A stretch of DNA of 64,000 nt from positions 62,001-126,000 of the forward strand of contig BAAIJX010000045.1 of NCBI GenBank assembly GCA_054600435.1, given 5' to 3'. Of this stretch, positions 57,181 to 60,327 are shown piece by piece. This DNA comes from Neophaeotheca triangularis (lineage: Eukaryota). Position 1 is the first letter of the stretch; the number at the start of each line of letters is the position of its first letter. The translations under genes were made by a program, and so were the position numbers. Under the pieces are notes generated by a model. That model was given only the letters and a program-made list of their open reading frames with translations, was not told the DNA's origin and did not search any database.

Positions 57181-58941
57181 GTGATGGTCTCGGTGGATGG
57201 TGTGCTGAGAGAGGTTGCCAGGAGGGTGGTTGTTAGGAGGATGGCTATGAGGAGAGTCCGTGGATGCGGTAGCATGTGAAGAAAGAGCATGGGAGAGAGC
57301 ATTGGGGGGAGCTTGTGGTTGCCTGTTGTATAAGAATACCTAGTATCGCAGCAGGAGTGCTTGGTCTGTATAACTCCATAGGCAGACTCGATGACGGAAA
57401 AGATTGACAATGCGCTTGCTTTTGCCTTTGTTGCTGAAATGCATGGGTCCTAGATCCCAGACTGGTAGTACTAACTACCAAAGCCGGAATCTACTTTCTC
57501 AAGGGCCGGGCAGAAATGTCCTCGAAGGGAGTAGAGGTAAGGCTGTTAAGCTATGCACGAAATATTCGACCACCGATCTAATATTAAAGATTGTTTTCTT
57601 AACTTTGATATTGTATGAAATCAGACCCGAGTCACCAACGGGCGGACATCACTCTGAGCTCCCTGGACATGGAACCTCTCGCCATCGCCCAAACCTCACG
57701 CCCTGCCTTCCCGCCAGTTCTTCCCTTAGACCGTTCCGGCGCGTAAAGTTGGCCGCGCTGTTGAGTAACTTCGATCTTTTCATCCAAATCAGTGGAAGAA
57801 TCTCGCGCCGGGAAAGTAGCCAGCTTCTTCGGTGACTGGTAACACTGTCGAACAAGGTGTCGTCGAAAACTTATTCATGCGGTTCAGACACCGCTTCATC
57901 GGCCAACGTCATGTGGGAGGTGACGAGCGATTTTCATCGCCACAATATAGCAATGGGGTGGAATGAAGAGGGCGTTATGATTCACCCTTTGAGCAAGTTT
58001 GACCCTGACACGATCTGGTCGAAACCCCATCGTTACATGCACAGCCAATCTTCAGCATCTACAAAACCACGAAGAGACCAGCGACCAATCCAACAACAAG
58101 CACCGCAGCGGAACTCAGCAGTCTTCGCTGTGGGAGCAACCCCCTCTTCCGCCACAACCAAACAACCTCCCTCATCATCCTCGCCTTCGATGATCTGACG
58201 AACTTTGATGATCTGACGAACTCGAATGCTCCTGACGCCAAACGGCAGCTCATGACACTGCTGGTCGATCTCATCGCAATTCCTTCACTGAAAGTACGGA
58301 AGCTTGTCGGGTTGCTCGCAGTCCTCGACATCATAGAGGATGAAAGCCAACTGGCTCGCATCCTACTCCTCGCCATCCTTACAAAATCATACTCCAGCCG
58401 GCGAGGGCTGTGCACACGGAGACCAAGGATTCCGAGCTATCTGCTTGCTCGCTTCGGGTGAGGATGATTTGAGTCATTTGCTACAGGTTCTCCGCTATGA
58501 TAAAGTATCAGGCGGCGGTTACACTATCCGATCCCATATCCTTGGGAAAACATGTTTCCAGCAGCCAAGGAGTAGTAAGAAGTAGTCCAGCAAGCAAGGA
58601 GTCGAGTCTTGCACTTAAGAGCTAGAGGTGATGTCCCGGGATCTGAGATCGTTGATCCGTAGTCAAGTGAACTATAAAGAGAACTTCAGGAAGACAAAAA
58701 GCCTCATCCAAAACTTCGAGCTCCCATCTCATGTTCTCGCGACCCAATCAGTCCAACCGACAAGGCCGCTTTTATGCTGCACATCGTGATGAGAACGGAA
58801 GTTGCCCAAACCCCAACCCGCATCAACCTCCTAAGCGAACCCGCGCACAGACTCTATCAAAATGCGCACGTCCCCCCCAGCGCCGAATTCCCCCCATACT
58901 AGACACGGCAAAATAAAAATAAAAATCACCACCAACGAAGC

Positions 58942-58953
58942 AAAAAAGCAAAA
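58942..58953 (-). terminator. Pol III T-run terminator of the 5S gene
   Basis: TTTTGCTTTTTT at and directly after the 5S 3' end on the minus strand. Confidence 0.75.
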
Positions 58954-59326
58954 GATACAACAGGTGGGATTCCCACGTGGTCACCCACCGTAGTACTAAT
59001 CACCCGCTTCAGTGCTTGAATATGGCAGAGTAACCGGAAATCTTATTGCGGTATTATCGATAAGAGGCAATTTTCTTATGCTACAGTAGGTAGACAATAA
59101 TATGAATGAAAGAAGTGGAAGGCACTAGAGCAAATACGTGTGACGTGTCTAGTAGGTACCTGAGTACCTGTAGTAGGTACCTATCCCGAAGATGTTCCAT
59201 CTACCGATGTTCCGAGCTTACGGTCCGTGCAAATCCAATGCAAAACGACGGGGATACGAGCGGCTGCGCCGTCGTCTCCCCGTCATTTTGCGGATGCCTT
59301 AGATTCACTGAGCTGTGGTCGTATCT
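58953..59326 (-). pseudogene. Dispersed 5S rRNA gene interrupted by an insertion (5' part 59326-59291, 3' part 59030-58953)
   Basis: 5' part AGATACGACCACAGCTCAGTGAATCTAAGGCATCC; 3' part CTCTGCCATATTCAAGCACTGAAGCGGGTGATTAGTACTACGGTGGGTGACCACGTGGGAATCCCACCTGTTGTATCT. Helices I, II and III pair across the two halves. Confidence 0.92.
59031..59291. mobile_element. ~260-bp non-coding insertion in 5S rDNA with a terminal 52-nt hairpin (putative non-autonomous element or relic)
   Basis: Separates the two 5S halves. An inverted repeat at 59240-59291 abuts the junction, and short internal repeats are present. No meaningful ORF. Confidence 0.6.
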
Positions 59327-59348
59327 GGAAGGTGCAGTTGTATTTGCG

Positions 59349-59356
59349 TTTATATA
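59349..59356 (-). promoter_or_regulatory. TATA element at about -30 to -23 of the 5S gene
   Basis: TATATAAA on the minus strand, at the position typical for dispersed filamentous-fungal 5S genes. Confidence 0.65.
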
Positions 59357-60327
59357 CAACTTAAATAAGAAGGTGCGATGAGGAGATGGCTAACAGCGTG
59401 GACATGTATCAACTAACTTAGCTCAAACTCGCACTCGAGCACTTAGAAGTACCCTTCAGCTGGCTAGCGACCTACGCTCGAAGCACAAATTCCCGCCAAC
59501 CCACAAGCTCTAGCTCGCCGTCAAATAGCCCCTATAATGCAACTCCCCGGACCGTGTGGAAATGCGTTGGCACCTCTTAGCGACCGCTTTCGCCTATGGT
59601 CGAGAGCTTGAAGGCTCGGCTACGGATTGGTTGTCTCCAATTGACGCTCGGATCTGAGAAGGAAGAATGTACAATAAAATATACAGTAAAAACAATACAA
59701 GCATAGCAAAAAAATCCGCTTCGGCTAGCAGCAGCCTACAGCAGCCGGGCAACAACTATTTGCGTTTGACAGCGAGGCGAGGGTACTGCCTAGGAGCAGA
59801 AGCGAGCAGCAGGACCGGCCAGCAGTTCAGCCTCCCAAAACGAACCAAGGCATAAACTCCAAAACTCACCGCACGCACACAACAAGACGAGACACTACCG
59901 AGCAGCCCGCGGTGTCAACTCAACAGCAATACCGAGAGCCAAGTTAGCTCTCTCGAATCAACACACTTCCCTATGGTATATAACGCCACGCCCACGACCT
60001 CGCCGCCCGAGAAAAGGCCCCGACGGTGACTCCAGCCTTAGCTCAGCACGCTCGTCCCTCCCTCCCACCATCATCGAGAACTCATAATCAGCAAGAGAAC
60101 ATCTACAATTCCTCCCTTGGCGGCTCGTAAGTAATCCGTCCTTGGTCTACAGACATCAAGAATTCTTTATTTAGTCTCGGAAACAAGCCACATCCATATG
60201 GCGCTTCTCCTAGAGCCTCGAGAGCGGTTTCCATCGCTCATAAGACATCGTCGTTCGCCCTCCTGTCGTGTAGCATACCCGCTGTCGAACCGTAGCCGTC
60301 GCGCCGTGTTCAGGCGTCCATGGATCT

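Follow-up and report, generated by a model that had tools for sequence, protein, structure and literature searches.

The 5S rRNA genes of fungi form a birth-and-death family, and Aspergillus nidulans carries pseudogenes of the 5S gene in which a 5′ half is followed by a conserved block. Repaired double-strand breaks may contain filler DNA or a templated insertion with a fold-back palindrome, and tyrosine recombinases cut their target at positions 6–8 bp apart.

The Starship literature describes insertion of these fungal elements into 5S genes at at least five distinct internal sites, with 23% of 222 curated insertion sites located in 5S (PMC11162782). The insertion site of Voyager lies 20 bp from the 5S start (PMC9156397). 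A 65-kb element of Lasallia pustulata, laspus2_s07456, has cggacgggatgcccagt at both boundaries, which corresponds to 5S helix III and loop C (PMC11162782 table S7), and a Starship boundary in loop C is thereby on record for this species. In two Aspergillus elements, loop C letters are part of an automatically called terminal repeat (PMC11162782), and the direct repeat CCCGTC is listed for two Fusarium elements (PMC11162782 table S1). In Aspergillus fumigatus, direct repeats of more than 6 bp go together with 5S targeting (bioRxiv 10.1101/2024.06.28.601215). Hephaestus, after which the target motif TTAC(N7)A is typed, was reported to excise without a footprint, and an engineered mini-Hephaestus was mobile with the captain supplied in trans (PMC10104507).

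Here we describe a 5S rRNA gene that is split in loop C by an insert of 261 nt. The gene lies in a 64-kb stretch of DNA, all of which was analysed and which is referred to as the window; all coordinates are positions in this window. A preliminary description of the locus had related the insert to mobile elements that target 5S genes.

Materials and Methods

Contigs of three sequencing runs from one study (X1, X2 and X3) were aligned to positions 58400–59900, and all copy counts are based on these alignments. The sampled-word content was 0.95 for X1, 0.46 for X2 and 0.00 for X3. X1 is probably the sample from which the window was derived and X2 belongs to the same study, so the support from the two runs is not fully independent. 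The contigs are short (unitigs, k = 31), and the flanks of related copies lie outside their view. For the direct-repeat test, the insert end was aligned in anchored form to 5S nt 1–41, and the result was compared with random places in the window.

Results

Structure of the interrupted 5S gene

Direct reading placed a 5S rRNA gene on the minus strand in two parts, with nt 1–35 at 59326–59292 and nt 42–119 at 59030–58953. The two parts are separated by 261 nt (59291–59031 in minus-strand order). The 5′ half (35 nt) comprises the 5′ strand of helix I, loop A, the 5′ strands of helices II and III and the first bases of loop C, and ends with ...AAGGCATCC. The 3′ half (78 nt) starts with CTCTGCC and extends from the 3′ strand of helix III onward, including the internal promoter region. 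A TATA-like box (TATATAAA) was read directly on the minus strand at 59349–59356, which is −30 to −23 from the 5S start, and a T-run terminator (TTT GC TTTTTT after ...ATCT) was read on the same strand at 58942–58952. Both are intact, and the initial view of the locus as a single 5S gene split in loop C, with its TATA box and T-run preserved, was confirmed.

When the two halves were joined by a script, they folded into the 5S three-way junction (−39.4 kcal/mol), in which the 5′ half pairs with the 3′ half to give helices I, II and III. The inverted arms of helix III, GGCA/TGCC, flank two break points that are 6 bp apart, as read directly.

The 3′ part alone scored 37.7 bits against the Rfam 5S_rRNA model (RF00001; gathering score 38), as a 5′-truncated match to model positions 43–120. 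A search at the gathering score returned no Rfam match in the 64-kb window. With an E-value cut-off, one 5S match was obtained at 58953–59064 (35.1 bits, gathering score 38), in which insert bases were taken as a poor 5′ half; the window contained no other 5S matches and no tRNA genes. Membership of RF00001 requires at least 38 bits across an uninterrupted gene of approximately 119 nt, and this locus scored below that. The stretch 59031–59064 was considered as a decayed 5′ half and ruled out, because the 3′ part scored higher alone (37.7 vs. 35.1 bits) and the anchored alignment was not significant. As an interrupted 5S gene, the locus is a pseudogene, one dead copy of a minor 5S variant, and belongs to the known class of fungal 5S pseudogenes.

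The neighbourhood consists of housekeeping genes, with a gene for a PWI/RRM protein upstream and one for a Zn2Cys6 factor downstream. The PWI/RRM protein has relatives in Dothideomycetes at 31–39% identity and one further match at 74%; the host is probably a Dothideomycete. The PWI/RRM gene is separated from the 5S locus by approximately 1.7 kb (57200–58900), in which only ORFs of 120–150 aa without Pfam matches were present. An A-rich low-complexity run was located at 58910–58950.

Intact form of the gene and reality of the junctions

In two X2 contigs, position 59030 was joined to 59292 by CGGACG alone (plus strand). This gives GGCATCC-CGTCCG-CTCTGCC as the sequence of the intact variant, so that in the window 261 nt stand in place of 6 nt of loop C. 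The same joint is direct proof that both halves belong to one gene, a relationship that had been proposed from pairing between the halves and that agrees with the three-way junction of the joined fold. It also fixes the loss from loop C, previously put at 5–6 nt, at 6 nt (CGTCCG). The loop C letters were identical in two further 5S variants, represented by joints from 59017 to 59304 and from 59017 to 59310.

The clean joint between 59030 and 59292 was found in X2 only and was absent from X1. One X1 contig at depth 520 (approximately four copies) joins 59030 to 59288 and may represent either the intact variant or another junction form. Intact copies of the 5S variant are present in the contigs and may stem from this locus or from others. 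Loose contig ends at 59030 and 59290/59292 were considered as recurrent break points and rejected, as the X2 consensus begins there with CGGACGG, which is intact loop C. Since any intact 5S copy must diverge from the window reference exactly at the insert edges, such loose ends are uninformative.

The interrupted form was recovered from two of the runs. One X1 contig spanned 59003–59208 with no differences at a depth of 124, compared with approximately 130 in the single-copy flanks. Unbroken X2 contigs spanned 59190–59326 (8 differences in 137 nt) and 59186–59324 (19 differences and 3 gaps in 139 nt). These junction-spanning contigs demonstrate that the split is real and that it occurs in a second sample, and they exclude misassembly. 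X3 contributed one contig, which covered the conserved 5S core only. The minus-strand junction with the 3′ half had been read as GGTTAC|TCTGCC; the correct reading is GGTTA|CTCTGCC, in which the C is 5S nt 42.

Metagenomes were scanned with a 22-nt pattern from the 5S 5′ half, which returned no stretches, and for a SNU71-like C-terminus, for which none of the 598 pattern matches was confirmed. No locus of a relative was found in these scans.

Composition of the insert

The insert looks composite rather than like a single element. Abutting the 5′ half is a 52-nt imperfect palindrome (59240–59291) with arms of 20 nt that are 90% complementary; it was present at approximately 1.2x depth in X1 and in three diverged versions in X2. 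Folded as DNA, this hairpin had an energy of −25.3 kcal/mol (z = −7.16), and none of 200 shuffles was as good. The remaining parts of the insert were not unusually structured: one had z = −1.73, with 11 of 200 shuffles folding equally well, and the other z = −1.31, with 28 of 200. The term hairpin-ended, which had been applied to the insert as a whole, is therefore appropriate for the end beside the 5′ half and not for the remainder.

The adjacent segment (59182–59239, minus strand, approximately 3x depth) consists of a spacer and the stretch GATGGAACATCTTCGGGATA, which by eye resembles a decayed 5′ part of another 5S variant. The sequence GATGGAACATCTTCGGGAT likewise resembles the 5′ parts of other 5S variants, again as judged by eye. 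In addition, an X2 contig in which 59029 is joined to 59182 reads ...CTTCGGGATA-TCCGCT-TCTGCC... on the minus strand, so that 59182–59201 is followed by a remnant of loop C and then by a 3′ half. Based on this contig and the resemblance of GATGGAACATCTTCGGGAT, 59182–59222 may represent a decayed 5′ piece of another 5S variant. The evidence for this ancestry is one contig and a by-eye alignment, and local alignment of the insert to the reconstructed 5S gene did not exceed the shuffles: the observed score was equalled or surpassed by 486 of 500 shuffles for the same strand and by 412 of 500 for the reverse strand.

The block at 59140–59181 is low-copy and contains two copies of TAGTAGGTACCT (AGGTACCT palindromes); a variant with a 5-nt deletion at 59158 occurred in both X1 and X2. 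The remaining part, 59031–59139, is AT-rich (36% GC). It was present at single-copy depth (124 vs. approximately 130) and was missing or replaced in related contig forms, as seen from the joints of 59030 to 59140, 59033 to 59186 and 59060 to 59161.

Compared with the window, the insert matched nothing except its own palindrome. Its sole terminal feature besides the hairpin was an 11-nt direct repeat with 82% identity (59041–59051 and 59283–59293). An Rfam search of 59160–59345 returned only sub-threshold microRNA-like hairpins (12–20 bits, gathering scores 45–100); the genuine 35-nt 5′ half was also missed, and the search is thus without power for fragments of this kind. The right arm of the hairpin (ATCCCCGTCG) was considered as the missing loop C. 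This was unsupported, with the X2 copies reading A at the last G (59246 C>T) and a local alignment that was not significant.

Copy number and related forms

The insert was not wholly single-copy. With a single copy at approximately 130, the summed X1 contig depth was 124 at 59063–59113 (1x), 179 at 59114–59164 (1.4x), 416 at 59165–59215 (3x), 420 at position 59221 (3x) and 160 at the hairpin (59246–59270; 1.2x), which places approximately 59140–59235 at roughly 3x.

In four other contig forms, the 5S 3′ half is connected to positions inside the insert, with varying lengths between them. The X1 form joins 59030 to 59140 (depth 139) and has the 5-nt deletion at 59158. In X2, 59029 is joined to 59182 with AGCGGA between (depth 88), 59033 to 59186 across 31 nt similar to the GGTACC block (depth 61.5), and 59060 to 59161 (depth 85). 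The second of these X2 forms is a contig of 1634 nt that holds a shorter split gene and matches the window only over 59186–59324, which hints at a different upstream flank and hence a separate locus. The related forms have the filler middle in common and differ in their indels. The locus in the window appears to be one of a small set of related 5S loci broken in loop C, with at least two in the source genome and several contig forms in the second sample. The preliminary description had named two outcomes that would refute it, a single-copy insert whose ends match no other 5S break point and a misassembly. Neither applies, given the threefold middle, the four contig forms and the junction-spanning contigs.

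The upstream flank of the gene was repeated as well. The X1 depth decreased from approximately 2,560 (59318–59368) to 215 (59624–59674) and was 130 from 59675 onward. The flank at 59326–59670 is thus present in approximately 20 copies beside the gene and at 1.6x approximately 340 nt away, whereas the downstream flank is single-copy. These depths indicate that the paralogs of this 5S variant have only their upstream sequence in common. Consequently, the extra insert copies can equally be paralogous duplicates of the broken gene. In X2, the flanks were represented by pairs of contigs at approximately 50–58x each, with approximately 1–2% and 6–8% differences from the window, which suggests two haplotypes or a mix of two strains. 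Some of the related forms in X2 may be alleles rather than paralogs.

The 5S sequence itself was far more abundant. The 3′ core (58961–59011) had an X1 depth of about 25,800 (about 200x) and was at approximately 200x in X2 also, and the bin with the 5′ half (59267–59317) had an X1 depth of about 6,800 (about 52x). The approximately fourfold excess of the 3′ core suggests many 5S variants or 3′ fragments in the genome. In a further X1 contig, the T-run of another 5S end is followed immediately by a 3′ half that starts at the same base, nt 42 (59030 joined to 58950, with AAAAAA between), which is a tandem truncated 5S copy elsewhere in the genome.

Search for mobile element and intron hallmarks

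Terminal inverted repeats (TIRs) and a clear target site duplication (TSD) were absent from the insert, in agreement with the preliminary description, and the insert thus lacks the features of class II transposons and miniature inverted-repeat transposable elements. None of the 145 ORFs of at least 120 aa in the 64-kb window encoded a captain (DUF3435), transposase, integrase or reverse transcriptase, and the insert, with 261 bp, is too short to encode a DUF3435 captain. A 5S-derived direct repeat at the insert end was not significant, either by identity (p = 0.19, 0.52 and 0.63) or with half credit for transitions (p = 0.064, 0.22 and 0.43), and the 5′-half side of the locus is entirely without CGTCCG. 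The motif TTAC(N7)A is not present at the junction: the minus strand reads TTAC-TCTGCCA-T, with a T after the N7, and the C of TTAC is 5S nt 42.

Helitron-like elements have a 5′ TC and a 3′ CTRR preceded by a hairpin, and insert between A and T. The insert has no TC or CTRR termini, and its hairpin reaches the very end (TTTTGC). Group I, group II and other intron families were not detected by Rfam at E ≤ 10 in 58500–59800. As had been stated before, the insert has no GT-AG ends. On the 5S strand it has the ends GC...TA, and its removal leaves loop C 6 nt short.

Discussion

The best explanation, to which we assign an even chance, is that this 5S pseudogene and the small set of related loci broken in loop C arose via break repair or ectopic recombination between dispersed 5S genes. 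The most likely origin would be a double-strand break in loop C of a 5S gene. End joining may have mended the break, or the repair may have involved ectopic recombination with template switching to dispersed 5S copies elsewhere. Such a repair would have left a patchwork filler consisting of the junction palindrome, the decayed 5′-like 5S piece, the block with the GGTACC motif and the AT-rich single-copy piece. The broken structure may then have spread, or may have been received, via the process, duplication or gene conversion, by which 5S genes and their upstream flanks are disseminated.

We infer this origin from the anatomy of the locus. A 6-nt deletion combined with a 261-nt insertion and no target duplication is typical of error-prone repair, and a palindrome located exactly at one junction is as expected of fold-back repair. 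Together with the patchwork of segments in unequal copy number and the related loci that differ by indels, these features favour repair over a transposon. The repeated upstream flank shows that 5S paralogs share flanks, which fits copying of whole loci, and the lack of a mobile-element gene among the 145 ORFs, of TIRs, of a significant 5S-like direct repeat and of overall 5S similarity of the insert was also counted for repair. Several points weigh against it. The short unitigs leave room for independent insertions into different 5S genes, and the 1634-nt X2 contig hints at a separate locus. Furthermore, the break points have a spacing of exactly 6 bp and coincide with the two edges of CGTCCG inside the inverted arms of helix III, a geometry that also fits a site-specific recombinase. 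The non-significant 5S similarity of 59182–59222 and the incomplete independence of X1 and X2 count against it as well.

The preliminary description had proposed a collapsed or miniature derivative of a Starship, or a non-autonomous family that targets 5S genes. The partly multi-copy insert and the Lasallia boundary in loop C are in line with this proposal, and the lack of a captain, a retained repeat, TIRs and TTAC(N7)A is at odds with it. Its two forms differ in the evidence that bears on them.

A miniature non-autonomous element with 5S loop C as its target, mobilised in trans by a recombinase whose gene lies elsewhere, appears unlikely. Such an element would have a variable interior, and its core would be approximately 59140–59291 or the ends of 59031–59291. 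Several contig forms do keep the junction with the 3′ half (59029–59033) and the right part of the insert (from 59182/59186 onward) and differ inside, and at least two loci were present at single-copy depth in X1 (124 and 139). One X2 contig, with GGGATA-TCCGCT-TCTGCC, looks like an unfilled site, and the engineered mini-Hephaestus provides a precedent for movement in trans. On the other hand, there are no TIRs, no TSD and no direct repeat that matches the target. The hairpin end is at only approximately 1.2x in X1, the copy number is only 2–3, and the copies differ by 6–15%. Since the upstream flank is repeated too, duplication of the locus explains the copies. In addition, the loss of 6 nt from the target is not caused by conservative site-specific recombination.

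Alternatively, the insert could be a scar of a tyrosine recombinase of the Starship type at loop C, which we judge quite improbable. The scar would be either a collapsed element that has lost its interior, or the result of repair with filler after cleavage had been aborted on either side of a 6-bp crossover, CGTCCG. In favour of this reading are the range of 5S sites used by Starships, the boundary repeat of laspus2_s07456, whose edge is the same phosphodiester as the 59030|59031 junction in the window, the Fusarium repeat CCCGTC, and the 6-bp distance of the break points between the GGCA/TGCC arms. Against it stand the lack of a captain in the window, the lack of a direct repeat on either side, the unmatched TTAC(N7)A motif and the excision of Hephaestus without a footprint. 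A related reading would make 5S loop C in this fungus the core site of a tyrosine recombinase, with CGTCCG as the 6-bp crossover between the GGCA/TGCC arms. The window would then contain either a tiny hairpin-bearing non-autonomous passenger or the repair scar left when a double cleavage took out precisely the crossover. We regard this as quite improbable; if true, Starship-type 5S targeting would have a natural form, miniature or abortive, that is not known to have been described before.

A unique one-off capture without relatives, or an assembly artefact, is highly improbable: 59031–59139 at single-copy depth and the hairpin at approximately 1.2x in X1 would fit a one-off capture, but the junction-spanning contigs in X1 and X2, the related forms and the threefold middle have already largely refuted it.

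At present, the locus adds one broken copy to the large, dispersed family of fungal 5S genes and is mainly of value for annotation; standard Rfam thresholds miss the split 5S copy. If the shared module were found in several unrelated 5S genes or beside a captain, it would be the first natural case in which 5S-targeting Starship activity took a miniature or scar form, and the cleavage positions of the recombinase would be pinned to both edges of CGTCCG in loop C.

The closest mobile elements are the Starships in 5S rDNA (Voyager, Osiris and laspus2_s07456), which likewise split a dispersed fungal 5S gene internally. These elements are 27–700 kb in size, encode a DUF3435 captain and have 6–17-bp direct repeats of 5S sequence, whereas the insert described here is 261 bp, contains no gene and no retained repeat, and is accompanied by the loss of 6 nt of the target. 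In bacteria, integrative elements in tRNA genes also involve a recombinase that targets a conserved small RNA gene, and they leave partial gene duplicates at their ends. A second 5′-like 5S fragment inside the insert would fit this pattern, but the partial duplicate is putative here; moreover, these elements belong to a different kingdom, and the locus has no integrase. Filler DNA or templated insertions at repaired breaks resemble the locus in the 6-nt deletion, the absence of a target duplication, the composite insert, parts of which are copies of sequence at other genomic sites, and the palindrome at the junction. For this comparison, the mechanism is drawn from the anatomy of the locus alone. 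Finally, the pseudogenes of fungal 5S families likewise belong to dispersed families with several variants, in which copies broken in mid-gene adjoin low-copy non-5S sequence. The locus described here differs from these pseudogenes in that both halves of the gene have stayed at one locus, with filler between them.
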